The notes under the pieces were generated by a model. It made no database searches and had not been told where the DNA came from. It saw only the letters and a list, made by a program, of their open reading frames with translations. The translations under genes and the position numbers were made by a program. Of a stretch of 64,000 nucleotides of DNA, positions 11,143 through 27,962 are shown in pieces. The stretch is from positions 480,001 through 544,000 of the forward strand of contig OZ244852.1 in assembly GCA_965220965.1 (NCBI GenBank), written 5' to 3'. Each line of letters starts with the position of its first letter. Position 1 is the stretch's first letter. The DNA comes from Candidatus Marinacidobacterium sp. Lineage in GTDB: Bacteria > Acidobacteriota > Vicinamibacteria > Marinacidobacterales > Marinacidobacteraceae.

Positions 11143-12504
11143 TCAGGCTGCTGAGGCGTCCGAGGCGCGGTAGACGGCAAGCGACCGGACGGAGTCCGGG
11201 TCGGGGGATTCGTCGGGGTCGCCGACGTCTGCGGCGAGTTGTCGAACCGCCGTCGGTACGGGCTCCAGTTGGGGAAGATCCGACCCGGCCTTCTGCATTT
11301 CCTCGAGCCGGCGAGCGGTTGGGAGAAGGCGATGCTCGAACGACCCCACGCTGGCGTTGTACCGCTTCACCGCAGTGTGGAGCGATGAACCCAGGTCGCG
11401 GAGATGTCCGGTGAACTTCCGGACGCGCTCCACGAGCTCGCGGCCGAGGGTGGCGAGCTCCTTCATGTCGTCCGCGAGGCTTTGCTGTCGCCATCCCCAC
11501 GCCACCGCCTTCGCCAGCGCGATGAACGTCATGGGCGTCGCGATCAGGACCTGACGCTCGGCGGCGTACTCGAAGAGTTCCGCGTCGACCTCCAGCGCCC
11601 CGGCGAAGAGTGCTTCGCCTGGCAGGAACATGACGACGAAGTCGGGCGAGGTGCTGAGCGCGTTCCAGTACTCCTTCGAGGACAGCGCCTCCACATGGGT
11701 GCGGAGCTGGCGGGCGTGCCGGGTCAGCGCGGCCCGCCGCGCCGCCTCGCTCTCGGCCTCCGCGCCCGCGAGATAGGCCTCGAGGGGCGTCTTCGCGTCC
11801 ACCACCACGGACCGCTCGCCCGGCAGCCGCACGACGGCGTCCGGCCGCAGCGCCCCGTCCGGGTTGCGGAGCCCGGGCTGCTCCTCGAAGTCCACGTTCT
11901 CGAGCATCCCGGCCATTTCCAGCACCCGGCGCAACTGGACCTCGCCCCATCGCCCCCGGGTCTGCGGCCGGCGAAGCGCCTTGACCAGGCGTCCGGTCTC
12001 GTTCTCGAGTCTCCTCTGGCTCGCCGCCAGGTTCTTCACCTGCTCGCTGACCGTTCCGTAGGCCCCCTCGCGCTTCGACTCCAGCTCCTGAACGCTCTTC
12101 TCGAACTTGCCCAGGGCTTTCCCCAGTGGGTCCACGACGGCCTCGAGCTTCCTGTGGCGCGCCTTCATCTCCTCGCTGGCGGCGGTCTGGTGTCTCTGGA
12201 AGCGCTCGCTCACCAGCTTCAGGAAGTCCTCCCCGCTCTGCCGGAGCGCCTCGCTCGAGAGCGCGGCGAACTTCGTCTCGACCTCTTCGCCGAGCGCCCG
12301 CAGACCAGCGACCTCGGAGCTGTGGAGCCGTCGCTCGGATTCGAGCGAGGCCTTCGCGGCGGCGGCCTCCTCCCGGGCGGTTTCGAGGCGCTCCCTGAGT
12401 GGCGTCAGGCGCCGGTTCGATGCGATTGCGGCGAGGAGGGCGCCGGCGGCGAGCCCCAGCAGCAGCGCTCCCGCGATCAGGCTGATTGACATCGTCGTAT
12501 CCAT
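11143..12504 (-). CDS. rmuC: DNA recombination protein RmuC
   Basis: N-terminal TM plus coiled coil, RGRWGEVQL, RPDAVVRLPG..VVDAKTPL, PDFVVMFLPGE. Confidence 0.93.
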   Translation of the reverse strand: MDTTMSISLIAGALLLGLAAGALLAAIASNRRLTPLRERLETAREEAAAAKASLESERRLHSSEVAGLRALGEEVETKFAALSSEALRQSGEDFLKLVSERFQRHQTAASEEMKARHRKLEAVVDPLGKALGKFEKSVQELESKREGAYGTVSEQVKNLAASQRRLENETGRLVKALRRPQTRGRWGEVQLRRVLEMAGMLENVDFEEQPGLRNPDGALRPDAVVRLPGERSVVVDAKTPLEAYLAGAEAESEAARRAALTRHARQLRTHVEALSSKEYWNALSTSPDFVVMFLPGEALFAGALEVDAELFEYAAERQVLIATPMTFIALAKAVAWGWRQQSLADDMKELATLGRELVERVRKFTGHLRDLGSSLHTAVKRYNASVGSFEHRLLPTARRLEEMQKAGSDLPQLEPVPTAVRQLAADVGDPDESPDPDSVRSLAVYRASDASAA

Positions 12505-12726: not shown

Positions 12727-15003
12727 TTGATCCGCAAACAGGACGCCCTCGAGTACCACCGGAAAGGCCGCCCGGGCAAGATCGAGGTCCACCCCTCGAA
12801 GCCCACCCGGACCCAGCGCGACCTCTCGCTCGCCTACAGCCCGGGAGTCGCCGAGCCGTGCCGGGACATCCACGAGCGCCCGGAAGACGTCTTCGAGTAC
12901 ACCGCCAAGGGGAACCTGGTCGCCGTGGTCTCGAACGGGACGGCGGTCCTCGGGCTCGGGAACATCGGACCGCTGGCGGCCAAGCCGGTCATGGAAGGGA
13001 AGGGGGTGCTGTTCAAGCGCTTCGCCGACATCGATGTGTTCGACATCGAGCTGAACGTCACCGAGCCCGACGAGGTCGTGCGGGTCGTGAAGGCGCTCGA
13101 GCCCACCTTCGGGGGCATCAACCTCGAGGACATCAAGGCGCCCGACTGCTTCCACATCGAGAGCCGTCTGCGCGAGGAGATGGAGATCCCCGTCTTTCAC
13201 GATGACCAGCACGGCACCGCGATCATCTCGGGAGCGGCGTTCCTGAGCTGGCTCGAGCTCACCGGGAAGGACCCGGCGGAGGTCGTCATCGTCATCAACG
13301 GGGCCGGCGCCGCCGGGATCGCCTGCGCCGAGCTGGCGGAGAGCCTGGGAGTCCGGCACGAGCACATCGTGATGTGCGACTCGCGGGGCGTGATCCACCA
13401 GGGCCGCTCCTCGGGCATGAACGAGTTCAAGGAGCGCTACGCGCTCGACACCTCGGCGCGCACCCTCGAGGACGCCATGCGGGGCGCGGATGTCTTCATG
13501 GGCCTTTCGGTCGCCGGCGCGGTGTCGAAGGAGATGGTCGTCTCGATGCGCGAGCAGCCGCTCGTGATGGCGATGGCCAACCCCGATCCCGAGATCACCT
13601 GGGAGGACGCCAACGAGGCCCGTTCCGATGTCTTCATGGCGACCGGACGATCCGACTACCCGAACCAGGTGAACAACGTCCTCGGTTTCCCCTTCATCTT
13701 CCGCGGCGCGCTCGATGTGCGGGCGCGCTCGATCAACATGGAGATGAAGCTGGCCGCGGCCCGGGCGCTGGCGGCGCTGACCCGGGAGGACGTCCCGGAC
13801 TCGGTCATGCAGGCCCACGGCAAGGAACGCATGCAGTTCGGCCCGGAGTACCTCATCCCGTCCCCGTTCGACACCCGGGTTCTGCTCTGGGAGGCGCCCG
13901 CCGTCGCCCGCGCCGCGGTGGACAGCGGCGTGGCGCGCATCGGGCTGGACGAAGAGGAGTACGTGGCCCGCCTCGAGGCCCGCCTCGGACTCGAGCGCGA
14001 GGTCATGCGCAAGATGGTCAGCCGCGCCCGCAAGGTGAAGCGCTCGGTCGTCTTTCCCGAGGGGGAGGAGCCGAAGATCCTGCGCGCCGCCCAGCGCCTG
14101 ATCGACGAGAACATCGCCCGTCCCATCCTGATCGGCGATCCGGAGGCCATCCGCGAGCGCTGCGAGGCCCTCGACGTGGACATCGGCGACACCGCGATCG
14201 TCGCCGCCGGCGACAGCGCCCCCCGCGCCGATGTCTACGCGAAGGAACTGGCGGCGCTGCGGCAGCGGCGGGGCGTGGGCGTCCAGAAGGCCCGGGAGCT
14301 CCTGCGCAATCCGAGCTACTTCGGCGCGATGATGGTCCACCTCGGCGACGCCGACGCGATGGTGGCGGGGATCACCCAGAACTACCCGGAGACGATCCGT
14401 CCCGCGCTCCAGATCGTTCGCACCCGACCCGATGTGCGCCGGGTGGCGGGCGTCTACCTGATGGTGCTTCCGAACGAGCTCAAGTTCTTCGCCGACGCCA
14501 CGGTGAACATCGATCCGGACGCCGACACCCTCGCCGAAATCGCGATCCAGGCCGCCGAAGTGGCGCGCCGGTTCGACGTCGAGCCCCGGGTCGCGATGCT
14601 CTCCTTCTCGAACTTCGGCAGCGCTCCCCACCCCCGCTCGAACAAGGTGCGGGCCGCCGTCGAGATCCTCCGGGAGCGTGCGCCGGACCTCGTCGTCGAC
14701 GGCGAAATGCAGGCCGACACCGCCGTCGTCGAGGACATCCTGAACAAGACCTACCCGTTCTCGCGGCTCGACCGCGCGGCGAACGTGCTCGTCTTCCCCA
14801 GCCTCGAGGCCGGCAACGTGGCCTACAAGCTCATGCAGCGGCTCGGGGGCGCGGAGGCCATCGGACCGCTCGTCACCGGCCTGCGCCGGCCGGTCCATGT
14901 GCTCCAGCGGAACGCCGGCGTCGAGGAGATCGTGAACGTGGTCGCGATCGCCGCCGTCGAGGCGCAGCACAACCCCGGGGCCAAGCCGCTGTTCCCCGCC
15001 TGA
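12727..15003 (+). CDS. maeB: NADP-dependent malic enzyme with phosphotransacetylase-like domain
   Basis: [48 protein letters not shown], then VFPEGEE and DGEMQAD. Confidence 0.96.
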
Positions 15004-15031
15004 TCCGTCACCCGGACGGACGAGGCATCCG

Positions 15032-16441
15032 TCAGTCCTCCGGATTGCGCGCGGGTTTCGCGCTCTCGTTCGGCCCTGGACGGATGCTGCCGAGAGTGAA
15101 CATCCCGACGGGACCCTCGACCAGCGGATCGAGTCCCGTCGCCTTCGCGAAGACTCTCGGGTCGCTCGTCCCGACCGCGCACGGGGCGAGGCCGAGGGCG
15201 GTCGCGGCCAGATAGAGCGTCTGGTAGAGGACGCCGGCGTCCCGCAGGATCAGCCCGTAGCCGATCGAGTGGTACCGGCGCATCATCCGGGCGAAGCGGG
15301 CCGCCACCACCAGCACGACCTGGGGGGGCGCCCGGACCCCGAGCGAGGCGCTGGCCAGCTCGATGAGCTGTCGTGATTCCGGGGTGGGTCCGGCGATCCG
15401 GCCCAGCTCGTGCCGCGTCGCATCGTAGTGATAGAGGCCGGCGTCGAGGCCCCGGCAGGTGCGGATGACCGGATAGATCTCGAGCTCGTAGCGGGCGCCC
15501 GCGCCCGGATACGGTGGCCCCTCGGTCGGTCCGGTTCGGGGCGCCCGAGCCCGGTCACCGCCCGCCGGGAAGGAGCGGGGCCGCACCCTCGCCGCCAGAT
15601 CGAGCAGCCGACCCAGGTCTTCCGCGGTCATCGGTCGCTCATCCGCCCACTCGCGGAGCGAGCGGCGGCGCGCCATCAGCGCGCCGAGCGCGTCCGGACC
15701 GGAAGCCCCCCCTCCGGTGGCGAGCGGGATCCCCGGGCCCGTCCCGGGCCCCCGGGGCGTCGAGGCCGGCGACGGGGCATCGAGGTTCGGCGGTTTCTTG
15801 CCGACGGGATCGTGGGTCCAGCCGATGCTCTGATGGAAGTGGAAGTGGAGGTCGTGGAAGTCCCAGTCGGCGAGCGCTTCCGCCGGATGCGTTCCGGGCG
15901 CCGCCTCCAGGAAACCCGCCGCGTCGAGGGCCCTTCGCACGACCGGCGATTCCAGCGCCCGAAGGTCGGGGAGCGCGAATCGCGCGCCGACCAGCGGTGA
16001 TTCGAGGAGCCAGCCTCCTTCGCCTCGCGGCCGCAGGCAGGCCATCCGGTGCAGGCCCCGCTCCGGATCCGGTTCGCGGGCCGCCAGCGCCGGAACGAAC
16101 TCCCTCCACTGCGGCGACACGACAGCGCGTTCGGCGTCCCCGTCCATGAGCGGGAACTCGATGGCGCCGAGCCGCGTCAGCCGCTGCAGCGTGAGCAGGA
16201 CTTCCACGGCGCGCTCGACGCCGCCCGCGCCGATGGCGTGATCCCTGAGTTCCGCCAGCGAGGCGCCCGCGCTCAACCGGGCGGCCACCAGCCGGAACGC
16301 GTCCGGCGTCTTCAGGCGGCCGACGGTCCGTCCCTTCGGCCGCAGTTCGACGGCGTCCCGGTCTCCGGTTTCGCCGAGGTCGACCTCCCGCGAAAGCCGA
16401 AGATGGATCGCCGGCTCGTTCGTCAGATCAGGGAACGACAT
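15032..16441 (-). CDS. SagB/ThcOx-family FMN-dependent azoline dehydrogenase with N-terminal extension
   Basis: RRRSLR, YPGAGARYELEIYP, GLYHYD, DAGVLYQTLYLAATALGLAPCAVG; AAGGAG RBS before ATG 16441. Confidence 0.9.
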   Translation of the reverse strand: MSFPDLTNEPAIHLRLSREVDLGETGDRDAVELRPKGRTVGRLKTPDAFRLVAARLSAGASLAELRDHAIGAGGVERAVEVLLTLQRLTRLGAIEFPLMDGDAERAVVSPQWREFVPALAAREPDPERGLHRMACLRPRGEGGWLLESPLVGARFALPDLRALESPVVRRALDAAGFLEAAPGTHPAEALADWDFHDLHFHFHQSIGWTHDPVGKKPPNLDAPSPASTPRGPGTGPGIPLATGGGASGPDALGALMARRRSLREWADERPMTAEDLGRLLDLAARVRPRSFPAGGDRARAPRTGPTEGPPYPGAGARYELEIYPVIRTCRGLDAGLYHYDATRHELGRIAGPTPESRQLIELASASLGVRAPPQVVLVVAARFARMMRRYHSIGYGLILRDAGVLYQTLYLAATALGLAPCAVGTSDPRVFAKATGLDPLVEGPVGMFTLGSIRPGPNESAKPARNPED

Positions 16442-16497
16442 GGCTGAGGCGCTCCTTTGAGGAGCGCCGGAAAGAGGCGAGACCGCCACCGCGCGAA

Positions 16498-16506
16498 TGG
16501 TACGAT
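16498..16506 (+). promoter_or_regulatory. Putative extended -10 element for the leader-only gene and ycaO
   Basis: TGGTACGAT (TGn-TAnnnT) about 24 nt before GTG 16530, in the divergent intergenic gap. Confidence 0.45.
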
Positions 16507-16529
16507 CGGCGTCGCCTGCGGAGGGCGGA

Positions 16530-16754
16530 GTGAACCAGAAGGAAGGCGGCCCGGATGACGGCCGGTATGTGGATCTGGTCGCCCGCTACTACGGCGATCC
16601 GGAGTTCCGCGCCCGGATGGACCGGGACCCGGCGGCCGTGATGAAGGCCGAGGGATTCGATGTCCCGGAGGACGCCACGATCCGGCTGCTGTTCGATCGG
16701 GCGGATCTCATGAACATCGTGCTGCCCGCCCCCGGTCCGGATCCTCCGAAGTGA
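16530..16754 (+). CDS. Stand-alone NHLP leader-like peptide with no GG site and no core
   Basis: LVARYYGDPEFRARMDRDPAAVMKAEGFDVPEDATIRLL..NIVLP matches the nitrile-hydratase-like leader pattern; stop overlaps the ycaO start (GTGA). Alternative start ATG 16497. Confidence 0.8.
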   Translation: MNQKEGGPDDGRYVDLVARYYGDPEFRARMDRDPAAVMKAEGFDVPEDATIRLLFDRADLMNIVLPAPGPDPPK

Positions 16755-19081
16755 ACGCGGCTCCGGGCTTCCCGGAGGCGCCGGCCGCGGACATCGCGCC
16801 CGAGGTTGATCCGGCCCTCGGCGTCCGGCGCTTCGCTCCCGAGGACCGGGGCCTCGTCGAACGGCCGGTGCTGGCGCCCCATCTGCGTTACCGCGTCGTC
16901 GCCGACGGGAAGATCGTCATCGCCTCGGACCGGACCGGCGCTGTGCTCGAGGGGCGCTGTCTTCCCGACCTGATGCCGCTGCTCGACGGCGAGCGGACGC
17001 GACACGCGATCCTGGCGGAGCTCGCCGGGCGCCACGAGGCGCTGGAGGTGCAGACCGCGCTGGTCCGGCTGGCCGCCGACGGCTACGTCGTCTCGGCGGA
17101 ATTCGGGCTGGACCGTCCGCTCGCCGCCTTCTGGAGCGGCCTGGGCGCCTCGCCCCGGTTCGCCGAAGCGCGTCTCGCCGCGACCCCGGTCCGGGTGAGG
17201 GGTGATGACGGGCGCCTTCGGGCCCGGCTCCGCGACTTCGGCGTCCAGTCCGGGGCCGGACCCGGGAGTCTCGAGGTCGCGCTCACCGCCGGCTACGCCC
17301 GGGGTGGAGGCGACGCCTCAGCCCGGTCGGTTCGCGGCGCCGGCGCCTGGACGCTGGTTCAGACTTCCGGTTCGGCCCCGGTCTTCGGGCCGGTCTTCGG
17401 ACCGGAGGGCGGCGGCGCGTGCTGGACCTGCATCGCCCGGCGCATGGAGGGCGCCCGAGGGTTCGAGTCCTTCCTGCGACGCACCCGGAACGGGGACCCG
17501 GGCGTTCGGGAAGGGCGTCCGGGACCGGCGGTCGTCCACGGCATGGCCGCCCTCGAGATCGCCCGCTGGATCGTTCTCCGAAAAGGGGCGCCGCTTCACG
17601 ACCACCTCTTTTCCTTCGACGTCGCCACATCCGGCCTGCGCACGCACGGCGCGCCCCGGCGCCCCCAGTGCGCCGAGTGCGGCCCGGCCGACGCCGCCGA
17701 CGCGTTCCGGGCCGATCGCCCGCCCGAGCCCCTCCGCCTCGAGTCGAGTCCCAAGGCGCTGACCAACAGCGGTGGGACGCGCACCGCGGCGCCGGAAGAC
17801 ACGGTGCGGCGATATCGGCATCTGGTCGATCCGGTCGTCGGCGTGGTGAAGGAGCTCTCGAGGGTCAGCGCCTCCGGCGATTCGTGGCGCCACGTGTACC
17901 TCGCGAGCCAGGCGGCCGTCGAAGGGCCATCCGACCTCCGGGGGCTCCGCACCGCGCGGCGGGGCCGCAGCTCGGGCAAGGGCGGCGCCCCGGAGCAGGC
18001 GGAGGCCAGCGCGCTCTGCGAGGCGCTCGAGCGCTACTCGGGGACGCTCCAGGGGGGCGAGATCCGCCAGCGGCGCCGCTTCACCGACTTCCAGGCCGGC
18101 GAAGCCATCGCGCCCAACGACGTGCAGCTCTTCAGCCAGGCCCAGCTCGAAGCGGCGCCCGGCGACTATCCGGTCCCCACCGTCATCCCGCCCGCGCCGT
18201 TCGAGCCGGACGCGGCCATCGACTGGACTCCGGTCTGGTCCCTGACCGCGCGCCGGCATCGTTATCTGCCAACCGCTCTCCTCTACTTCATGCCCGTCGT
18301 TCCGGGAGCGCCCAACCAGTTCGTCGCCGACTCGAACGGGTGCGCGGCCGGCAACACGCGGGAGGAGGCGATTCTCCAGGGCTTCTTCGAGCTGGTCGAG
18401 CGCGACGCCTTCGCCTGCTGGTGGTACAATCGGATCCCGATGCCGGCCGTGGACCTGGCCAGCTTCGGGCGGGACTACCTGGCGCGGGCGCCCGCCGAGT
18501 ACGCGAAGGACGGCCGCGAGATGTGGCTGCTCGACATCACCCACGACTTCGGGATCCCCGTCTTTGTCGCGGTCTCGCGCCGCGCCTCCGGGCCTGCGGA
18601 ACAGATCCTCTTCGGGGCGGGCGCCCACCTCGATCCGGTCGTGGCGGCGATGCGCGCCGTGTGCGAAATGAACCAGATGCTCGTCCGGCTGGGACCGGAC
18701 CTTCCGGTGTCGGGGCATGACCACGATGGGCCCCGGCTGGAGTGGCTGCGCACCGCGACCACCGCCGCGCACCCCTACGTGGCGCCGGCCCCGGACGAGC
18801 CGGCGCGGTCAGCGGGTGGCGAGGCGCCGCGGACCAGCGATCACCGCGAGGACATCCGGTCGTGCCGCCGGATCGTCGAGGAGCGCGGGATGGAACTGCT
18901 CGTCCTCGACCAGACCCGGCCCGATGTCGGGCTGCCGGTGGTCCGGGTCATCGTCCCCGGGATGCGCCCCTGGTGGGCGCGGTTCGCGCCCGGCCGCCTC
19001 TACGACACGCCGGTGAGCCTGGGATGGCGCGTTCGCGCCGCCTCCGAGGCCGAACTCAACCCGCTGGAACCGATGTTCTGA
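16751..19081 (+). CDS. Fused RRE / E1-like / YcaO cyclodehydratase (TOMM C-D fusion)
   Basis: N-terminal RRE-like region, CWTC and CAEC, SSGKG, ALCEALERYS, SNGCAAGNTREEAILQGFFELVERDA, Pro-rich C-terminus NPLEPMF. Confidence 0.95.
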   Translation: MNAAPGFPEAPAADIAPEVDPALGVRRFAPEDRGLVERPVLAPHLRYRVVADGKIVIASDRTGAVLEGRCLPDLMPLLDGERTRHAILAELAGRHEALEVQTALVRLAADGYVVSAEFGLDRPLAAFWSGLGASPRFAEARLAATPVRVRGDDGRLRARLRDFGVQSGAGPGSLEVALTAGYARGGGDASARSVRGAGAWTLVQTSGSAPVFGPVFGPEGGGACWTCIARRMEGARGFESFLRRTRNGDPGVREGRPGPAVVHGMAALEIARWIVLRKGAPLHDHLFSFDVATSGLRTHGAPRRPQCAECGPADAADAFRADRPPEPLRLESSPKALTNSGGTRTAAPEDTVRRYRHLVDPVVGVVKELSRVSASGDSWRHVYLASQAAVEGPSDLRGLRTARRGRSSGKGGAPEQAEASALCEALERYSGTLQGGEIRQRRRFTDFQAGEAIAPNDVQLFSQAQLEAAPGDYPVPTVIPPAPFEPDAAIDWTPVWSLTARRHRYLPTALLYFMPVVPGAPNQFVADSNGCAAGNTREEAILQGFFELVERDAFACWWYNRIPMPAVDLASFGRDYLARAPAEYAKDGREMWLLDITHDFGIPVFVAVSRRASGPAEQILFGAGAHLDPVVAAMRAVCEMNQMLVRLGPDLPVSGHDHDGPRLEWLRTATTAAHPYVAPAPDEPARSAGGEAPRTSDHREDIRSCRRIVEERGMELLVLDQTRPDVGLPVVRVIVPGMRPWWARFAPGRLYDTPVSLGWRVRAASEAELNPLEPMF

Positions 19082-19129
19082 TCGCGACCGGTCGGATGCC
19101 CGGGCCGGTCGGAAGCCCTGGCGAGCGGA

Positions 19130-19399
19130 TCAGTAGACGCAGTTGCAACCGCAGTAGTTGCAGTTGCCCCCGGAGACCGAATCGAGTTGCTCCCCGGTCA
19201 ACCGGGGGGAGGGCGGCAGGATCAGGTGCCCCTGACTCGCCGTGTCCTCGTGCACCCGGATCTCGAATCCGTCGGGGATCGTGATCTCGAACTCCTCTTC
19301 GATCACGCTCTTCGGATCCTGAGTCAGGCGGGCGCGGAAGCCGGCGTCGGCTTCCGCCCTGGCGATCAGGTGGGCGCGCATCTCGTTCGCGGATTTCAT
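19130..19399 (-). CDS. NHLP-family RiPP precursor 1; core NCNYCGCNCVY
   Basis: 78-aa NHLP leader ending LDSVSGG, 11-aa core; GGAGGA RBS. Confidence 0.93.
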   Translation of the reverse strand: MKSANEMRAHLIARAEADAGFRARLTQDPKSVIEEEFEITIPDGFEIRVHEDTASQGHLILPPSPRLTGEQLDSVSGGNCNYCGCNCVY

Positions 19400-19468
19400 G
19401 GGGCGCAGTCCTCCGGTAGCGGAAACCTAACAGAACGCGAAGGCTCCAGGCGCGGTCCGGCGCCGGCC

Positions 19469-20347
19469 TCAGGCGCCCTGGAAGTCGGCGCGGGCATACG
19501 CCTTGGCCGCCACCCCTCCGCGCGGGTCGATGTTCGTCTTGAAGTGATGCAGGATGACGCGGAGGACTCGCATGCCCGCGCCGGTCAGCGTGAGTTGCGG
19601 GAGCAGCGGAGCTTTCAGTCTGCGCGCCTTGCCGGGGAGACACCAACCCTCGGCGACGAAGAAGTCGACGAGTCCGACCCAGGCGGCTGACGACTCGTCC
19701 GTCAGCGCGCGATGGGCGAAGAGTTCGATCCCCAGGCCGGGTGAGATCCGCCCATCCGTGACATCCACCATCAGGTTGCACTCCGGACTCAGCTCGCCGG
19801 TCAGGGCGGGGGGCGCCTGACGGGCGTCCAGCCGCGGCGGCAGCGCCCCGCTCCAGCCGATGCGCTCCAGGAACGCGGGGGCGTCGGCCCAGGGAACGCG
19901 CGCCGCCACCCGCATCGCGCGGGGCCGGCGCCCCGGCATGGCGCCGAGATGCGCAAGCAGCCCGGCGGGGGGCAGCGCCGCGACGATCCGGCTGACCAGC
20001 GCGCTCTCCCGTTCTTCCGGCGGCCAGCCGGCGGCGCGCGCGAGTTCGGGGACAAGGACGTCCACCCCGGCCCGGTCCGGCGGAAGGTGCAGGTTGGCGA
20101 GGAAGATGCCGGGCGCCCGCTCGGGCGCGGCGATGAGGTCGTACTCGAGGATGATCTCGGGCGCGAGCTGGCCGAGCGCGGATCCCGTCCGCTCCATTTC
20201 ACCCAGGAGTCCGGCGACGCCCGGCCAGCCGCTGTCCCGGGTGACCCACCCGGCGAAGGCGCTTCCGGGACGGACCCGCACAAACAGGTCCGCCGCCGGC
20301 GCCGGATCGGCGAGGCGGAACTCGAAGCCGAACGGATCCTCGGCCAC
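19469..20347 (-). CDS. Uncharacterised RiPP-associated enzyme, possibly ABBA-fold prenyltransferase-like (true start probably further upstream)
   Basis: FGFEFRL..D, ILEYD, LMVDV, GIELF, HHFK..AKAY. Lies between two precursors; the frame stays open to about 20480. Confidence 0.6.
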   Translation of the reverse strand: MAEDPFGFEFRLADPAPAADLFVRVRPGSAFAGWVTRDSGWPGVAGLLGEMERTGSALGQLAPEIILEYDLIAAPERAPGIFLANLHLPPDRAGVDVLVPELARAAGWPPEERESALVSRIVAALPPAGLLAHLGAMPGRRPRAMRVAARVPWADAPAFLERIGWSGALPPRLDARQAPPALTGELSPECNLMVDVTDGRISPGLGIELFAHRALTDESSAAWVGLVDFFVAEGWCLPGKARRLKAPLLPQLTLTGAGMRVLRVILHHFKTNIDPRGGVAAKAYARADFQGA

Positions 20348-20480
20348 GCAGGCGGGGAGCGCCGCCGCGGTCCGCAGCAGGACATCCCACGCCGCTGCGC
20401 CGATGAGTTCCGCGGGAATGACCGTTCGCGCGGTGGCCAGCGCCGGGGCGAAGCCCGCCGTTGGCCGGTCGGTTACCGCA

Positions 20481-20741
20481 TCAGTAATGGCAACTGCAGA
20501 CGTTCGTGCCTCCCGCCACCGAGTCGAGCTGATCCGAGCTCAGCCGGGGCGAGGGGGGCAGGACGAGGTGCCCCTCGGTCGCGGTGTCCTGGTGGACCCG
20601 GACCTCGAATCCGTCCGGGATCGTGATTTCGAACTCCTCTTCGATCACGGACTTCGGATCCTGCGCCAGGCGGGCGCGGAAGCCGGAGTCGGCCTGGGCC
20701 TTCGCGATCAGGTGGGCGCGCATCTCGTGAGCGGACTTCAT
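20481..20741 (-). CDS. NHLP-family RiPP precursor 2; core TNVCSCHY
   Basis: Last 86 aa of the spurious 1033-aa ORF: MKSAHEMRAHLIAKA..LDSVAGG-TNVCSCHY; GGAGGA RBS before ATG 20741. Confidence 0.93.
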   Translation of the reverse strand: MKSAHEMRAHLIAKAQADSGFRARLAQDPKSVIEEEFEITIPDGFEVRVHQDTATEGHLVLPPSPRLSSDQLDSVAGGTNVCSCHY

Positions 20742-20770
20742 GTGGCGGAATCCTCCCGAATCGGAAACTA

Positions 20771-23686
20771 TCAGAGCTTCGGGTCCGGGGAAAACGCCAT
20801 CTGGCGGGTGGCCATCCGTCGGAAAGGGCCGTCCTCGGCCATCAGCGCCTGATAGTTCCCGGACTGGACGACGCGCCCTGACTCGAGCACATGAATGCGG
20901 TCCGCCCGGCGGATGGTGGAGAGACGGTGCGCGATGACGATCCGGGTCGCAGCCGATGACTCGATGCCCGCCATCGCCTGGGCCTGGCTCTTGCGGTCCA
21001 GCCAGCTCGTGGCTTCGTCGAGAAACAGGATGCGCGGCTTGCGCACGAGCGCGGCGGCGAGCGAGATGCCCTGGGTCTGCCCCCCGGACAGCACGGCCGC
21101 GTCGCCCACGCTGGTGTGCATCCCCATCGGCATGGCCGCGATGTCCCGCGCCACGCCCGCCAGCTTCGCCGCCCCCCAGGCGTCGGTGAGGTCCAGGTCC
21201 TCCGTCCCGACGATGTTCTCCAGAATGCTGCCCGGCATCAGGCCCTGCTCCTGCATCACGACCCCCACGTGACGCCGCACCGCGCGCCGATCGATGTGCG
21301 CGAGGTTCCGGCCGTCGTAGTAGATGGCGCCGGCTGACGGCTCGTCGAGGCCGAGCGCCAGCCGGATGAGCGTGCTCTTGCCGGCGCCGGACTCCCCGAC
21401 GATCGCGACGAACTCCCCCGGCCGGACGTGGATCGAGACGCCCTGGAGGATCTCGCGCGCCCCCGGCGCATACTTGAACCGCACGTTGTCGAACCGGATC
21501 TCGCCGCTCAGCTCGACGGGAGGGGCGTTCGCCGTCGGAGTCGATTCCGGAACGCGGGCCAGCACCGGCCCCACCTGCTCGCACGAGGGCCCGATCTCGG
21601 CGATCGTGTCGAACACCTGCCCCAGCGCGATGACCGAGCCGAACAGGACCATGGCGGCCAGGTAGGCGACGAGGAAGTCCCCGGTCGCCTCCGCTCCGCG
21701 CTCCTGCCGGCTCGCCAGCAGGAAGATGGCGGCGCCGGCCAGCGCCGGGAGGGCGGCGAAGAGCGCCTGGAGGTGTTCCTGGAGCGAGGAAACCCGGACT
21801 TCGGCCTCCTTCTGTTCCCGGTAACGCCGCGCCCAGGCGGCGTAGGCGAACCCTTCCGCGCCGCTCTGCCGCAGCCGGACGATTCCGGCCACGAACTGCA
21901 GCAGGTCCCGCGTCTGTCGACGGGCGGCCTCGAGTCGCCGGCGCTGCGCGCGGGTCTGGACCGCGCCGAGTCCGCCAGCGAGCAGGAGCGGGGCGAGACC
22001 GAAACCGAGGACGAGCAGGCCGAACCAGACGTCGAACAGGAAGAGCAGACAGACCGCCGGCAGAAGCTGAAACGGCGCGAGCAGGGTCGCCGCCACCGAG
22101 CCGCCGACCTGGTCGCGGAGCCGCTGGAAGACGGTGGCGCGAACCGCCGAGTCGCCGGCTGTCGTATGCGGATCCACCCGGCTCCGGACCAGGCGATCCC
22201 ACAGCGCCGCCGTGAGCCGGCTGGAAACCCGCGCCTCGAGGCGCATCGCGGCCGCCCCACGGAGGACGCCGGCGGCGCCGGCGACCAGGGCCAGAGGGAG
22301 CAGGCCGGCGGTGAAGGCGATCAGGATGCCGGGCTGGCCGGTGGGGATCACCCGCTCGATCAGCGCGCCGAGCGTGACCGGCGGCGCCATCGCCAGAAGG
22401 CCGGCGACCACCCCCGCCAGCGCAAGGGCGAGCGCGTCCCCCAGCAGGTTGTGTTTCGCCAGCCCCCCGAGGTCGCGCCATCCGGCCGGACGGCGAGACG
22501 GCAATCCGGGGTAGGGGAGCCAGGCCATCTCCTCCAGGCCTGCGGCCACGCCGGCATTCACCGTTACGGAACTCCCTGAGGCCGGATCCACCGCCCGGTA
22601 GCCACCCGTGCGGGGAATCAGCGCGATCGGGCGCCCGTCCTCTCGACCGCGGCCCAGCATGGCTCCGCTGTCGCTTCGCCACCAGGCGTCGTCCCTCCGC
22701 AGCCGCACCCGGCGGGCCTGAACGCCGGTCGCCCGGAAGACCTGCTCGGCGCCGGGTTCCTCCCCGCCCTTCAGCGGGGGAGCGCGGAACTCCATGCCGC
22801 TGTGGCGACCCACGGCTTCGAGGGCCGCCATCAGCGGACGCCGCTCGCGCGCCGCGGCGGGGCCGTGGAACAGGGCGGCGAGATGCGCCTTCCCCTCGGC
22901 CTCGGCCTCCCGGCCGCGATGGGACGCCTCGACCTGCAGGTTGGCGAAGTCCACCGCCCGGAGCCGCCGGGTGAGGCCCTCGGCGCCCAGGATGAGCTCG
23001 TGGAAGCGCGCCAGCGCCGACCCCAGCAGCAGTTCCGGGGCGAGTTCCCGGGAGGCGATGGCATGGGTCTCCACGCCGGCCGCAAGCGTTACCCAGGCGT
23101 CCCTGGTGATGGCCGTCGGGGCGCCGTCCGGCACCGGCTCGAGGTCGAGGAACAGGGATCCGGGTATGGCGTCCGGCCCGATCCAGACGACGCCGCGGGC
23201 TGCGGCGATCCGGCCTTCCTCCACCGCTCCCTCGGACCCCGGCGTGAGCCGCGCCCCGATCCGGGGCATGGGCCGGATGGCGCTCGCCACCCCGGCGGCG
23301 AACGGACGGATCCAGGCGTCGACCTGGGCGGCCAGCGCCTCGCCTCCGTCGCGCCTTCGGGCCTCGGCGAGGAGGCGATCCACCGCGATCCGGCGGACCG
23401 TGGTCCCGGCGATCCCCTTGGCGTGGAGGCCGAGCGAGGCGCCCTTGCCGCCCTCCGGGACGGCCCCGAAGGCCAGCCGACCGGGGAGGACGCGGAGCGC
23501 ATGCCGGAACCCGGATCGGGCGCCATCGGTCGCCAGGTCGACGACGAAGACGTCCAGCCCGCCCGATTCGACGAGCCAGCAATACCGCGGATCGTCGAGG
23601 TCGAGCGGTCGATTCGAGGCCGCTGTCCGCGGCGCCGAGCTCGAAGCCGCCAGCTCGGTGAGCCAGGCCGGCGCCGTATCAGTCAT
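20771..23686 (-). CDS. NHLP bacteriocin export ABC transporter, permease/ATPase subunit
   Basis: N-terminal CWLVESGGLDVF domain, WWRSDSGAMLG, TM domain, GESGAGKST, LSGGQ, LDEAT, IAHRL. Confidence 0.92.
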   Translation of the reverse strand: MTDTAPAWLTELAASSSAPRTAASNRPLDLDDPRYCWLVESGGLDVFVVDLATDGARSGFRHALRVLPGRLAFGAVPEGGKGASLGLHAKGIAGTTVRRIAVDRLLAEARRRDGGEALAAQVDAWIRPFAAGVASAIRPMPRIGARLTPGSEGAVEEGRIAAARGVVWIGPDAIPGSLFLDLEPVPDGAPTAITRDAWVTLAAGVETHAIASRELAPELLLGSALARFHELILGAEGLTRRLRAVDFANLQVEASHRGREAEAEGKAHLAALFHGPAAARERRPLMAALEAVGRHSGMEFRAPPLKGGEEPGAEQVFRATGVQARRVRLRRDDAWWRSDSGAMLGRGREDGRPIALIPRTGGYRAVDPASGSSVTVNAGVAAGLEEMAWLPYPGLPSRRPAGWRDLGGLAKHNLLGDALALALAGVVAGLLAMAPPVTLGALIERVIPTGQPGILIAFTAGLLPLALVAGAAGVLRGAAAMRLEARVSSRLTAALWDRLVRSRVDPHTTAGDSAVRATVFQRLRDQVGGSVAATLLAPFQLLPAVCLLFLFDVWFGLLVLGFGLAPLLLAGGLGAVQTRAQRRRLEAARRQTRDLLQFVAGIVRLRQSGAEGFAYAAWARRYREQKEAEVRVSSLQEHLQALFAALPALAGAAIFLLASRQERGAEATGDFLVAYLAAMVLFGSVIALGQVFDTIAEIGPSCEQVGPVLARVPESTPTANAPPVELSGEIRFDNVRFKYAPGAREILQGVSIHVRPGEFVAIVGESGAGKSTLIRLALGLDEPSAGAIYYDGRNLAHIDRRAVRRHVGVVMQEQGLMPGSILENIVGTEDLDLTDAWGAAKLAGVARDIAAMPMGMHTSVGDAAVLSGGQTQGISLAAALVRKPRILFLDEATSWLDRKSQAQAMAGIESSAATRIVIAHRLSTIRRADRIHVLESGRVVQSGNYQALMAEDGPFRRMATRQMAFSPDPKL

Positions 23687-25886
23687 CGCCCACCAGGTCG
23701 CGGTATAGGCCCTCGACCGCGATCAGCTCGTCGTGCGAGCCGGTCTGGACCGGCCGGCCCGAGTCGAGGACCACGATCAGGTCGCTGTCGCGAATCGTCG
23801 AGAGCCGGTGAGCGATGATGAGGCAGGAACACCCCCGGCGGCGGAGCGCGTCGTCGATCTCCTGTTCGGTGAGCACATCGAGCCCGCTGGTCGCCTCGTC
23901 CAGAACCAGAACCGAGGGCTCGTTGACCAGCGCGCGGGCGATCTCGAGCCGCAGCCGCTCCCCGCCGCTGAAGTTGCGCCCCGCCTCCTCCACCGGCGTC
24001 TCGTAGCCGAGCGGCCGGCGCAGAATCTCCTCGTGGATCCGGGCGTCGCGCGCCGCCGCCACCACCAGTTCGTCCGGCGCGGCGCTGTTCCACAGCGTGA
24101 GGTTCTCCCGGACGGTCGCCGCGAACAGGAACGGGCTCTGGTCCACCATCGAGACCGAGTTCTGGAGCACCGCCGACGGAATCCGGCGACGGGGAACGCC
24201 GTCGAAACAGACCTCTCCCGACCAGGGCTCGTGAACGCCGGCCACCAGCGAGGCGAGAGTCGATTTGCCCGACCCGATGGATCCCACGATCGCCACCCGC
24301 TGCCCGGGTTCGATCGTCAGCGAGAAGTTCTCGATCAGCGGCGGGCGGTTTCGCTGGAAGCCGAAGGTGACATCGCGCAGCTCGATCCTTCCGGCGAGCC
24401 GGACTCGTCCGGCGAGGGTGGCGACCCCCGGACCCTCACTCTCGGCAGCCGCCGGGTTCTCCTCGTCGCCCGAGACCACCAGGACGTCGTTCAGGCGCTG
24501 GAGCTGTCCCTCGAGCGACTGGATCGTGTCCGAGAACTGCGTCAACTGACATACCGGGCGGAGGAAGTTGCCGGCCACGACGTAGAAACCAACCAGCGTT
24601 CCGATGGTCATGTCGCCGTTCATGGCGCGCCAGCCGCCGAAACCGAAGACCGCCGCGGCGCCCAGGATCAGGACGAAATCCGGCAGCGCCGTGGTGACGT
24701 GCCCGAGCTCGGCGAACTCCTGGCGCGCCTTCAGTTCCCGCGCCTGGTGGCCGGCTGCGCGCGAAAAGAAGCGGTTCTCCGAAGCGGTGGCCTGGAGCTG
24801 GGTCAGGCGGCGCAGTCCGGACGTGACGTATCCCGCCAGCTCTCCCTGGGCGCGCGCGAATCCCGGGCTGAGTTCCGCCCGCCGATTGCGCACCAGCCGC
24901 GCGAGCGCCAGCGCCAGGATGGCGAGCGCGGCCACCGCCACCGCCGACGGGACGTCGAAGACGAACATAAGCGCGAGGAACGAGAGCCCGAGCGCCACAT
25001 CGGCGAAGAGCGACACGAGCTGGGTCGCGCTGACGGTGGCCACGCCGTCCACCAGCCGCATGCGATCCACCAGGTCGCCGGCCAGCCGGCGGCTGAAGAA
25101 GGACATCGGACGCCGGAGCAGTCGCGTGAAATAGCGGTCGGCGTACTCGACCGACATCCGCACTCCCATCCGCCGCAGCGTTCGCATCTGGAGCCAGGTG
25201 AGCAGGTAGACCAGCGCGGCGACGCCTCCGGCCGCCGCGATCAGCGCCCCGGACCGCGCGGCCTGGCCGCCGATCAGCACCTGATCCACGAAGAGGGCGA
25301 GGAGCAGCGGCAGGGCGAGGCCGGAGGCCGCGAGGAACAGCGAATAGAGCGCCGCGAGTCCGAGCGAGGGTCGATGCCCGGAGAACCAGGGCCAGAGCTG
25401 CCGCAGCACGCCCGACGACTGGCCGCCCTGACGAAACTCCGGCGTCGCCTCCGGGATCAGGAGCACCCCGGTGAACGCCGTGTCGAAGTCCTTCGCCCCG
25501 ATGGTCCGGTGTCCGCTCGCCGGGTCGTTGATGTGGAAGCCGTCGCGGTCAGCGCCCTCGAGAACGACGAAGTGGTTGAACTCCCAGAAGAGGATCGACG
25601 GAACCGGCGAGGCGTCCAGTTGGGAAGGTTCCCGGCGCCATCCGGTGGTCTTCAGCCCGTAGGTCGAGGCGGCGCGGACGATGTCCCCGGCGGTGCAGCC
25701 GTCGCGTCCGGTCCCGCACGCCTCCCGCATCTCCTCGAGGGTGGCCCGGTAGCCGAAGTGGGCCAGCACGATGCCGAGACAGGCGGCGCCGCAGTCGGAG
25801 GCCTCCTGCTGAAGGAAGACCGGTGTGCGGACCCGCCTTCGCCGGCGAAACGGCGACAGCCGCCTCACCGCGTCGCTCAGCTTCAC
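23679..25886 (-). CDS. NHLP bacteriocin export ABC transporter with C39 peptidase
   Basis: GTG 25886; QQEASDCGAACL, WEFNHFVVLEG, INDPASG (C39 Cys/His/Asp); GSIGSGKST, FSGGE, LDEAT. Confidence 0.94.
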   Translation of the reverse strand: MKLSDAVRRLSPFRRRRRVRTPVFLQQEASDCGAACLGIVLAHFGYRATLEEMREACGTGRDGCTAGDIVRAASTYGLKTTGWRREPSQLDASPVPSILFWEFNHFVVLEGADRDGFHINDPASGHRTIGAKDFDTAFTGVLLIPEATPEFRQGGQSSGVLRQLWPWFSGHRPSLGLAALYSLFLAASGLALPLLLALFVDQVLIGGQAARSGALIAAAGGVAALVYLLTWLQMRTLRRMGVRMSVEYADRYFTRLLRRPMSFFSRRLAGDLVDRMRLVDGVATVSATQLVSLFADVALGLSFLALMFVFDVPSAVAVAALAILALALARLVRNRRAELSPGFARAQGELAGYVTSGLRRLTQLQATASENRFFSRAAGHQARELKARQEFAELGHVTTALPDFVLILGAAAVFGFGGWRAMNGDMTIGTLVGFYVVAGNFLRPVCQLTQFSDTIQSLEGQLQRLNDVLVVSGDEENPAAAESEGPGVATLAGRVRLAGRIELRDVTFGFQRNRPPLIENFSLTIEPGQRVAIVGSIGSGKSTLASLVAGVHEPWSGEVCFDGVPRRRIPSAVLQNSVSMVDQSPFLFAATVRENLTLWNSAAPDELVVAAARDARIHEEILRRPLGYETPVEEAGRNFSGGERLRLEIARALVNEPSVLVLDEATSGLDVLTEQEIDDALRRRGCSCLIIAHRLSTIRDSDLIVVLDSGRPVQTGSHDELIAVEGLYRDLVGDD

Positions 25887-26740
25887 GGATCGGGCAGCAG
25901 AAGCGCGAGCGGCGAGGTCCGCCCCGTCGGGATGGCCACCCGCGCGGCCGCCCCCTCCCGGACTCCCGGGGTCCCCGGCGGGAGCGCCAGTCGAACGAGC
26001 CGCGCGCTCTCCGATGCGAAGGAAGCCCGGGCGGCCAGGCTGGACGCGGAAGGGTCGAGGACCTCTTCCAAGACCGAGGACGCCGGCTCCTCGCTCGCCC
26101 CGAGCCGCACCGCAACGGCAGCCCCCCGGGAGATCCTCGCCGCGAGTCCGTCCTCGACGGCGACCAGAACCTCGGGCAAGCCGCCGTCCGCGCGGACTTC
26201 GGCCACCGGCTGACCCTCGGACACCGGAACTCCGACCGCCAGATCGTTCAGGACGAGGATCCCGGCGACCGGGCTGATGACCTCGGCGGCGGCCTCGGCG
26301 GCCTCCAGGTCGGCGCGCGCGACCTCGAGCGCCGGTGGTTCCGAATCGGCGTCCGACGCCAGGCTCCGGGCCTCGACGACCGCGAGCCGGGCCTCGGCGA
26401 GCGCGATCCGCAGCGCGGTCTCCGGCCCTTCGATGCGCGCCACGACCTGACCGGGCCGGACCGGGTCGCCGTCCCCGGCGAGCAGTTCGACGACGGTCCC
26501 GCCGGCGCCGGCGGCGAGCGCGGTCCGCTCTCCGCCGAAGACGACGAGGCCCTCCCGGATCTCGATCCGATCCACCCGCACCAGGGCGCCCCACGCGACG
26601 GCGGCGATCACCCCCGCCGCCAGCGCCACGCGCAGTTGCCGCTCGTGCGGCGCGCTCACGCAGAGGGGGTCGTCAAGGGGGTCCGGCCGCGCGCTCTCGA
26701 GCAGCGCGGACTCCCGAAACGGCGAGGAGCCAGTCCACAT
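25883..26740 (-). CDS. NHLP-system secretion adaptor (HlyD-like), short form
   Basis: PFRESAL..PDPLDDPL, TM helix, split lipoyl-like halves, C-terminal SPLALLLP; overlaps the transporter start. Confidence 0.8.
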   Translation of the reverse strand: MWTGSSPFRESALLESARPDPLDDPLCVSAPHERQLRVALAAGVIAAVAWGALVRVDRIEIREGLVVFGGERTALAAGAGGTVVELLAGDGDPVRPGQVVARIEGPETALRIALAEARLAVVEARSLASDADSEPPALEVARADLEAAEAAAEVISPVAGILVLNDLAVGVPVSEGQPVAEVRADGGLPEVLVAVEDGLAARISRGAAVAVRLGASEEPASSVLEEVLDPSASSLAARASFASESARLVRLALPPGTPGVREGAAARVAIPTGRTSPLALLLPDP

Positions 26741-26917
26741 GCACTGCTGATCCTCGCATGATCCGCCCCCTCAGCGGAGGAACGCCACGCCGCGCGGCGG
26801 GATGTCCCGGCTCGGGGAGCGGCCGGCGCGGCGTCCGCTCCCCCGGGTCGGTCAGTCAGGCGCTGTCACCGCCGGAGCGCGCGCCGGGGATGCGCATGCC
26901 GCCGGCGACGGCGTCTG

Positions 26918-27181
26918 CTACATCGTGACGGCGCACATGCAGGAGATGCCGCCCGAGACGCCGTCGAGCTGCTCCTCGCTCAGTTGGGGCGAGGGCGGGA
27001 GGACCAGGCGCCCCTCGGTGGAGCTGTCCTCGTGCTCCGGCGCCTCGAACCCGTCGGGGAGGGTGATGTCGAACTCCTCCTCGATCGCGGCCTTCGGATC
27101 CTGGGTCCGACGAGCGCGAAAGACGGGATCCTCTCCCGCCTTGGCGATGAGGCGGGCGCGCATCTCGGTCACGGACTTCAT
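26918..27181 (-). CDS. NHLP-family RiPP precursor 3; core ISCMCAVTM
   Basis: MKSVTEMRARLIAKA..LDGVSGG-ISCMCAVTM; GGGAGGA RBS before ATG 27181. Confidence 0.9.
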   Translation of the reverse strand: MKSVTEMRARLIAKAGEDPVFRARRTQDPKAAIEEEFDITLPDGFEAPEHEDSSTEGRLVLPPSPQLSEEQLDGVSGGISCMCAVTM

Positions 27182-27242
27182 GAGCCGTTTCCTCCCTGGA
27201 ACATCAGCCTGACCACCGCCGGATCCCCGACGCAAACAACTG

Positions 27243-27962
27243 TCACCGGTTGGATCGGGCCGCTTCGCGCCCCGGGGGACCAGTGGCCGGAACCGCGGCG
27301 CCGCGGTGCAGACGCCGGTAGAGCGGCGCGAGGCGGCGCGGCGGCGCCCCCGCCAGCCAGGCCAGCAGCGTCAGGTTGTCGAGGACGGCGGTGAGGACCG
27401 GGCCGAGGCGGCGCCAGTGTTCGTCCCCGGTCGTGACCGGACTCGCGGTCGGGACCAGAAGGCCCACGCGGCGGATCCGGCGGGCGAAGGCGGCGTCCTC
27501 CATGATCGGATCGTCCGGGAAGCCGCCGACCTCGAGGAAGGCGGACCGGCGGACGAAGATGGCCTGGTCGCCGTAGGGAAGGCGCAGCCAGCGGGCGCGC
27601 CGGTTGGCGCGGCGGGCGCCGCCCCGGAGCAGGCGGCTCGCCGTCTCGACGCGTTGCGGAAACCACCCGCCGACGGCGCCGGGCTGCGCCAGCGCTCGCT
27701 CGATCTGCGCTTCCGCGTCGGGAGGGAGGCGGCAGTCTGCATGGAGGAAGAGCAGCACCCGGCCGCGGGCTTCCCGCGCCCCCAGGTTCATCTGCCGGGC
27801 CCGGCCGGGGGAGGAAAGGAGGACCCGCGCCCCCGCCGATCCCGCCTCGGCGACGGTGGCGTCCCCGCTCCCGCCGTCCACCACGAGGACTTCGGCCCCG
27901 GGCGGCGCGGACCGGATGGCGCGCCCGACAGCCCCCGCCGCGTCGAGCGAGGGGATGACCAC
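27243..27962 (-). CDS. GT2 glycosyltransferase, TIGR04283-like
   Basis: VVDGGSGDAT, GRARQMNLGA, LLFLHADC, PYGDQAIFVRR, GGFPDDPIMED. Confidence 0.88.
   Translation of the reverse strand: MVIPSLDAAGAVGRAIRSAPPGAEVLVVDGGSGDATVAEAGSAGARVLLSSPGRARQMNLGAREARGRVLLFLHADCRLPPDAEAQIERALAQPGAVGGWFPQRVETASRLLRGGARRANRRARWLRLPYGDQAIFVRRSAFLEVGGFPDDPIMEDAAFARRIRRVGLLVPTASPVTTGDEHWRRLGPVLTAVLDNLTLLAWLAGAPPRRLAPLYRRLHRGAAVPATGPPGREAARSNR

Follow-up and report, generated by a model that had tools for sequence, protein, structure and literature searches.

The locus examined here raises the question of what a bacterium makes from three very short, cysteine-rich precursor peptides, and of what is encoded by the one enzyme gene beside them that had been left without assignment. 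It lies at 15032-27181 of the window, by which we mean the whole stretch of 64,000 nucleotides that was analysed (Candidatus Marinacidobacterium sp., assembly GCA_965220965.1, contig OZ244852.1, positions 480,001 to 544,000 of the forward strand); all coordinates given are those of the window. We propose, as the reading that is rather more probable than its competitors taken together, that this is an NHLP (proteusin-leader) cluster for azole-bearing peptides made by ribosomes and modified after their translation (RiPPs), whose products carry azoles and possibly a prenyl group as well. The unassigned gene is predicted with high confidence, from a structural model, to encode a protein with the ABBA fold of aromatic prenyltransferases. 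A preliminary description of the window had listed the genes of the cluster, and each of them was recovered at its place from the open reading frames (ORFs) and their NCBIfam and Pfam matches.

The three precursor genes are all on the reverse strand, at 19130..19399 (precursor 1), 20481..20741 (precursor 2) and 26918..27181 (precursor 3). Their products score 68.1, 66.8 and 53.6 bits against TIGR03793, thus all passing the curated cut-off of 50.9 bits, and their ATG codons are preceded by the boxes GGAGGA (9 nt), GGGAGGA (9 nt) and GGGAGGA (8 nt), respectively. All three leaders contain an L(X)4L motif (LTGEQL, LSSDQL and LSEEQL), a GG site and hydrophobic residues at positions -4, -7 and -12. 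The motif has been tied to binding by the RiPP recognition element (RRE) of YcaO proteins (PMC12455567), and the hydrophobic residues to cleavage by C39 peptidases (PMC12537861). The precursors end in LTGEQLDSVSGG-NCNYCGCNCVY (a core of 11 residues), LSSDQLDSVAGG-TNVCSCHY (8 residues) and LSEEQLDGVSGG-ISCMCAVTM (9 residues), which confirms the three GG-type precursors with C-x-C cores of 8-11 residues that had first been described. The cores contain Cys and Tyr and no Trp; cores 1 and 2 end in Tyr.

Comparison with a collection of 5.8 billion proteins places these precursors among very different cores. None of the 108 nearest precursors (matches at E <= 1e-10) has an identical core; Trp occurs in the tail of 103 of them, and the only ones with at least two Cys in the tail are the window's own two. 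The nearest precursor outside the window is 59% identical and has the core GDTYYTNCM, with a Tyr-Tyr pair. Judged from these comparisons, the window would therefore combine a leader of the type that elsewhere precedes Trp-bearing cores with Cys-x-Cys cores, a YcaO of the srp type and a SagB dehydrogenase.

The two enzymes expected to act on the cysteines are readily recognized. The YcaO protein (16751..19081, +) is a fusion of 776 residues comprising RRE, E1-like and YcaO parts, with 253.6 bits against TIGR03604 (cut-off 219.25), 117.6 bits against TIGR03882 (36.9) and 319 bits against Pfam YcaO; its winged-helix, RRE-like domain gives a weak Pfam match (wHTH PF21084, 22.8 bits). The SagB-type azoline dehydrogenase, dependent on flavin mononucleotide (FMN), is encoded at 15032..16489 (-) and scores 139.9 bits against TIGR03605 (cut-off 78.4) and 58.1 against Pfam Nitroreductase. 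Its N-terminal extension has a faint ThcOx-like match (26.2 bits for a cut-off of 27.7). Its start is likelier the ATG at 16441, with an AAGGAG box 10 nt upstream, than the listed GTG at 16489. Given these genes, we hold azole formation to be very probable. The polythiazol(in)e peptides proposed in the preliminary description fit, as far as the genes go, every family test (YcaO, SagB, Cys-rich cores and C39).

The unassigned gene was first seen as an ORF of 292 residues (19469-20347, -) with no Pfam or NCBIfam match at E <= 0.01. In the same protein collection it has 84 homologues of 27-38% identity, each of which is unnamed or called 'hypothetical', exceeds the ORF in length by 40-100 residues and comes without a precomputed Pfam domain (85 of 85 entries). 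Upstream of the ORF, 44 in-frame codons agree with the family consensus, down to its near-invariant Pro and Leu positions, and the gene most likely extends over them to about 20479-20488, as judged from this conservation. We thus consider it as the putative peptide prenyltransferase gene 19469..20488 (-). For the 336-residue form, an AlphaFold2 model derived from a 53-row alignment has a mean predicted local distance difference test score (pLDDT) of 91.5 and a predicted template modelling score (pTM) of 0.90. Foldseek found 73 matches in the PDB at E <= 0.001, and those listed are all aromatic (ABBA) prenyltransferases: 5-DMATS comes first (E 3.5e-7), followed by IptA, AmbP3, TleC, FunA, PriB, CymD, PagF and Orf2. 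The Foldseek probability for this fold is 1.00. VIA-align superimposed 291 of the 336 residues on MpnD (Z 16.1, root-mean-square deviation 4.2 A) and retrieved 131 chains at Z >= 8, the best 50 of which are all ABBA prenyltransferases. A language-model atlas gave the same prenyltransferase lead independently. The earlier label of an unassigned enzyme hence stands as far as library matches are concerned, and falls in that the fold can be predicted.

Several family-wide features accompany this model. Invariant residues (E53, E112-Y113-D114, R184, E252, K314, K326 and Y328) are placed by the model on or beside predicted strands. The protein matches neither of the Pfam prenyltransferase families Trp_DMAT (PF11991) and PTase_Orf2 (PF11468) at E <= 0.01. 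The family has many members: among 1.84 billion cluster representatives, its profile retrieved 3615 at E <= 0.001, 2599 at E <= 1e-10 and 504 at E <= 1e-30. No report of it was found in a literature search conducted mostly at the level of titles and abstracts, with the original srp and mpr papers and supplements outside its range. A complex predicted for the prenyltransferase-like protein and precursor 2 scored 0.01, for a mark of 0.32, and is evidence neither way.

What this family sits beside in other genomes is informative. One genome per species was scanned for the pattern of a 10-row family alignment, which yielded 28 loci; according to record titles these come from Dehalococcoidia/Chloroflexota, Acidimicrobiia, Latescibacterota, Vicinamibacterales, Nitrospirales and SAR202 metagenome-assembled genomes. 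The loci were then compared by tblastn with the window's proteins. At least one NHLP precursor adjoins the family gene in 28/28 loci, with up to 14 in tandem, and 23 of the 28 encode a homologue of the C39-ABC protein in the flanks retrieved. No YcaO or SagB match at E <= 1e-3 was seen in any of the 28, within flanks of at most 10 kb from which a very divergent YcaO could escape. The 93 precursor hits gave 91 parsed cores, 71 of them unique. Trp is present in 67 of these 71, Tyr without Trp in three, and neither in one (GSL, from a gene that is probably truncated); Trp is the last residue of 23 and accounts for 9.7% of core residues. Two cores were left unparsed (HHEWV and VEMYRF), and a parsed 'core' of 84 residues (L028:797) is probably a false hit. 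With NHLP neighbours at every locus and Trp in nearly all unique cores, the family is associated with short Trp-bearing NHLP cores, an association that fits the indole prenyltransferases at the top of the structural lists.

We also observed that the same short cores, for example HHTGLWG and GSHKGYYW, are repeated in tandem arrays of up to 14 genes (L005, L006, L009, L010 and L014 from Dehalococcoidia, and L019 from Nitrospirales). Identical cores across records of different phyla suggest that whole cassettes are shared laterally.

Closer relatives place the family beside azole-forming enzymes. The prenyltransferase-like gene was found in neither of two same-genus genomes, in 11 of 13 genomes of the sister genus and in none of 16 from two further families within the order. 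Within the sister genus, YcaO, the prenyltransferase-like gene and a precursor stand side by side in 8 of 9 fetched loci. In these eight loci YcaO is 54-59% identical to that of the window (over the part covered) and the prenyltransferase-like protein 26-30%, and the cores are LCCCW (six times), LCCCGI (once) and LCCCL (once), the LCCCW precursors bearing the motif ITEEQL. The combination of LCCCW with ITEEQL or LTEEQL is the signature of srp, in which SrpC makes three thiazolines and SrpI brominates Trp (PMC10858898; bioRxiv 10.1101/2023.06.09.544420). Two 20-kb views of relatives' loci gave a YcaO 51% identical over 763-787 residues. The likeness to sponge-microbiome proteusin clusters, to which the preliminary description had pointed, thus turns out to be real homology, the YcaO of sister-genus LCCCW clusters being 51-59% identical to the window's. 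SagB had no match within +-10 kb in two relatives' LCCCW-type clusters, and none of the ten ORFs of one LCCCW-type locus matched a halogenase family in Pfam.

From these elements the following pathway can be proposed. The RRE/E1-like-YcaO fusion would bind the three precursors, which their upstream boxes would allow to be strongly translated, by way of their structured leader with its L(X)4L motif. The YcaO part would then convert Cys of the 8-11-residue cores into thiazolines by ATP-dependent cyclodehydration, possibly reacting with Ser and Thr too, and the SagB flavoenzyme would oxidize the thiazolines to thiazoles. A loss of up to 80 Da is then predicted from core 1, and of 40 Da from each of cores 2 and 3, with larger values should Ser or Thr react. 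Since the 'unassigned enzyme' is predicted to have an ABBA fold, the products may also be prenylated: the prenyltransferase-like enzyme may next attach an isoprenyl group, and the acceptor that we suggest is the terminal Tyr of cores 1 and 2, in replacement of the Trp of relatives' substrates. Last, the C39-ABC protein would cleave after GG and, jointly with the short HlyD adaptor and the other ABC protein, export the product. As for the prenyl step taken by itself, we regard its being carried out by the window's own copy as close to an even matter, and if anything slightly short of it.

A number of points weigh against this pathway and should be given together. Every chemical step in it is inferred. 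Trp is missing from each core of the window, and core 3 is devoid of aromatic residues altogether, which bears on the prenyl step. The LCCCGI and LCCCL cores beside family members have no aromatic residue either, so that the acceptor need not be aromatic. When the family profile was run against all PDB sequences, the best E was 0.17, to unrelated proteins and at chance level, which leaves the family without a sequence link to solved prenyltransferases. The window copy is itself atypical. Between the upstream stop and GTG 20347, its first canonical start, there is no ATG, GTG or TTG, and the near-cognate starts ATT 20488, CTG 20440 and ATT 20419 all lack a suitably spaced Shine-Dalgarno (SD) box. 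At model residue 248 the copy has Gly in place of the Arg of all other 52 family sequences (an Arg is present four residues earlier); it retains 45 of the 54 columns with conservation of >=90%, and ranks as the fourth most divergent of 53. Finally, all three exporter proteins score under the NCBIfam equivalog cut-offs. We consider the window copy as divergent and possibly impaired.

Two other explanations for the absent start codon were rejected. An assembly error is excluded: two sequencing runs, belonging to two studies, have contigs that reproduce the stretch 19100-20800 with 0 substitutions and 0 indels over 1701 bp (either run may be the source of the window itself); a third run covers a small share of this stretch. 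A frameshift fusion of precursor 2 with the prenyltransferase-like gene is unsupported, the TGATG at the precursor-2 stop giving Met-Arg-stop in another frame.

One could then assume that the cluster makes polythiazol(in)e peptides and nothing more, its prenyltransferase-like gene being the decaying relic of an ancestor that prenylated Trp before the cores became Cys-rich. The missing start codon and SD box before the conserved N-terminus, found identically in the contigs of both runs, speak for such a decay, as do the loss of the family-invariant Arg, the nine changed columns among the 54 conserved ones and the lack of Trp in the three cores, compared with its presence in 103/108 nearest precursors and 67/71 family-adjacent cores. 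Moreover, chance produces long open frames in DNA of 73% GC, where many out-of-frame ORFs of >300 aa are present; the GC content of the window is about 70%. Against decay, the copy keeps 21 of the 22 columns invariant in the other 52 family sequences, residues within the 44 upstream codons included, has neither stop nor frameshift across its 336 codons, and folds into a confident AlphaFold2 model. Nor are cores without Trp foreign to the family, as Tyr-only cores (VDVYPV, IDYDPNIS and VEMYRF) lie beside its members elsewhere; the terminal Tyr of cores 1 and 2 has its counterpart in the terminal Trp of many relatives, and the nearest core outside the window is the Tyr-Tyr core given above. We therefore see the relic as a rather unlikely explanation, to be kept in mind all the same. 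The enzyme could alternatively be active on a non-aromatic acceptor (a Cys thiol, a thiazoline, His or the terminus), or its ABBA barrel could serve a reaction other than prenylation. This would accommodate the cores without aromatic residues (LCCCGI, LCCCL and core 3) that stand beside family members, and the Trp of srp, which is published as the residue that the brominase modifies (PMC10858898). Lacking a Pfam model of its own and any profile-level tie to prenyltransferases of solved structure, the family would moreover leave room for a different chemistry. On the other hand, the high share of Trp in the cores of the YcaO-less loci points to Trp as a selected feature there, and the top structural neighbours are, among the matches listed, all aromatic prenyltransferases. 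Such a departure from aromatic prenylation seems improbable to us. For prenylation of the cores by the window's copy, the retained conserved residues, the Tyr-only cores elsewhere and a C-terminal Tyr that parallels the frequent C-terminal Trp speak in favour, to be weighed against the points listed above.

A wider hypothesis, which we offer as speculative, would be that this Pfam-less ABBA family consists of new and very widespread leader-dependent prenyltransferases of NHLP peptides, of which the window's member was drawn into a YcaO/SagB pathway and shifted from Trp to a new acceptor, the C-terminal Tyr or some other; the cluster would then yield polythiazole lipopeptides, 8-11 residues long, that bear a prenyl group. 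No report of such lipopeptides was found in the literature, again mostly at the level of titles and abstracts. The main gain of this work is the identity proposed for an 'unknown' gene whose family is habitually found beside NHLP precursors, including those of srp-type clusters that are still cryptic. If the family is active, many 'cryptic' NHLP peptides would be lipidated. The window can be seen as a natural experiment: it joins the same enzyme family to cores without Trp, and so lends itself to asking whether Trp alone serves as acceptor.

The preliminary description had not been able to match the cluster to a known product. This has to be revised, for the kind is already established: it is an NHLP azol(in)e cluster related to srp and mpr, both characterised (PMC10858898, PMC12455567). 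The gene architecture of such NHLP/thiazole-oxazole-modified microcin (TOMM) clusters was defined by Haft, Basu and Mitchell in 2010 (PMC2887384). The window has exactly the gene set of that architecture (TIGR03793, TIGR03882/03604, TIGR03605 and TIGR03794/96/97) and differs from it by the additional ABBA-fold gene and by exporter proteins that stay under the equivalog cut-offs.

A closer parallel can be drawn with srp (SrpE, SrpC and SrpI; PMC10858898). In both, the NHLP precursor bears an L(X)4L motif of the LTEEQL type ahead of a Cys-rich core of very few residues, and is accompanied by an RRE-YcaO for thiazoline formation and by an NHLM-type exporter. They differ in that the window's cores are not LCCCW and lack the terminal Trp, in the absence of a brominase from the window and in its three different precursors. 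The likeness to SrpC rests on the YcaO proteins encoded beside LCCCW precursors, 51-59% identical to the window's. With the sister-genus LCCCW clusters the window shares a homologue of the prenyltransferase-like gene and an NHLP-like gene before YcaO, whereas SagB is present in the window and a C-terminal domain of about 360 residues on the NHLP-like protein in the relative only. The mpr cluster of a methanotroph (MprE1-10, MprC and MprD; PMC12455567) likewise combines multiple NHLP precursors, whose cores vary, with a YcaO and a flavin oxidase; MprC and the FMN oxidase MprD form thiazoles (-20 Da) on NHLP substrates, with a preference for Cys. Its cores are different and no prenyltransferase is mentioned for it in the accessible text of that paper, and we liken the two by description, not by sequence. 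Nostatin A, cited in the same paper, is a further characterised azole NHLP peptide; in the literature consulted, srp, mpr and nostatin are the only ones of this kind that have been characterised.

On the side of the prenyl step, MppC, from a lanthipeptide cluster, provides the precedent of a leader-dependent ABBA prenyltransferase acting on long-leader (Nif11-type) RiPP precursors (PMC12715784). Shared features are a soluble ABBA prenyltransferase gene adjoining a RiPP precursor with a long structured leader and a short core; the acceptor of MppC is Trp. MppC acts after LanM cyclisation and not after a YcaO, as far as that source goes, and the comparison is one of fold and context, not of sequence. 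PalQ of Paenibacillus alvei (PMC10853753) also works on an NHLP-type precursor, PalX, of which a C-terminal aromatic residue (Trp) is prenylated. It differs by its all-helical isoprene-synthase fold, which is not ABBA, and by the lack of a YcaO and of the exporter trio. Compared with all these systems, the window's cluster is new in its Trp-less Cys-x-Cys cores, its dehydrogenase and its divergent prenyltransferase-like copy within an srp/mpr-like azole cluster.

Before the YcaO gene, and overlapping its start, lies a gene for a protein of 85 aa (16497..16754, +), which had been called leader-only. It is indeed NHLP-like and has neither a GG motif nor a core; its score against TIGR03793, 29.4 bits, is under the cut-off of 50.9, so that its standing as an NHLP leader is to be taken with caution. 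It is 33% identical over 54 aa to the N-terminal domain of a longer protein encoded at the same position in a relative's srp-type cluster. In this LCCCW cluster (genome G018, L042:6790-8085, +) the gene before YcaO encodes an NHLP-like domain followed by about 360 further residues, for which a faint, sub-threshold match to the C-terminal part of squalene-hopene cyclase was obtained (15.9 bits). The window has the NHLP-like part alone, without this C-terminal domain.

The exporter that had been described, C39-ABC plus ABC plus HlyD, is present, with the reservation on cut-offs made above. The C39 peptidase-ABC protein, the double-glycine leader protease (23679..25886, -), scores 813 bits against TIGR03796 (cut-off 853.3) and 111 bits against Peptidase_C39; its start is most likely GTG 25886, overlapping the HlyD stop. 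The ABC permease/ATPase without peptidase domain (20771..23686, -) has TIGR03797 as best match (614.9 bits, cut-off 709.4). About 280 of its N-terminal residues (22847-23686, -) match no Pfam family, and homologues in related loci align with it over their full length of about 970 aa, from which we conclude that this extension is conserved. The HlyD-type adaptor (25883..26740, -) is short, with 285 aa, and scores 39 bits against TIGR03794 (cut-off 156.2) over the first 109 of 421 positions, and 31.9 against HlyD_3; homologues occur at the same position in related loci. The three NHLM families are the best or near-best matches of the exporter proteins, and the best-scoring ones for both ABC proteins. 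By these matches the exporter would work like an NHLM trio, yet one that has diverged from it.

The ten genes, as first listed, are flanked by genes for malic enzyme (12727-15003, +) and for a family-2 glycosyltransferase (27243-27962, -), and the enzyme genes are mostly overlapping neighbours. Every ORF in 15032-27235 belongs to one of the families mentioned, which leaves none to encode a halogenase, a radical SAM enzyme or LanM, as the preliminary description had stated; nor was a flavin-dependent brominase like SrpI found among these ORFs. In a same-genus genome (G002, L041) 63 bp separate the end of the malic-enzyme gene from the glycosyltransferase/nuoA block, with flanks 86% and 75% identical to those of the window, and relative to it the insert extends over 14974-27317 (12.3 kb). 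The cargo at this site is an AAA ATPase with RmuC in a second relative (G001, L040), and in a third (G007, L039) RmuC with an OEP/CusB-like/AcrB-type resistance-nodulation-division (RND) metal-efflux set. The short gap in the first genome and the differing cargo of the two others indicate that the cluster is an insertion at a variable spot, as read from these alignments, and the 12.3-kb cluster is laterally acquired. All four NHLP matches of the whole genome (3.25 Mb in 2 contigs) fall within it. A scan of 14800-27500 for promoters and terminators was uninformative, with 0 promoter-like sites and 4 terminator-like sites where 3.3 were expected.

Around the cluster, an RmuC-family gene (11143-12504, -) lies to the left and the nuo (NADH dehydrogenase) operon starts to the right (28100 onward, +). 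RmuC stands on the opposite side of the malic-enzyme gene in two relatives, which indicates a local rearrangement.

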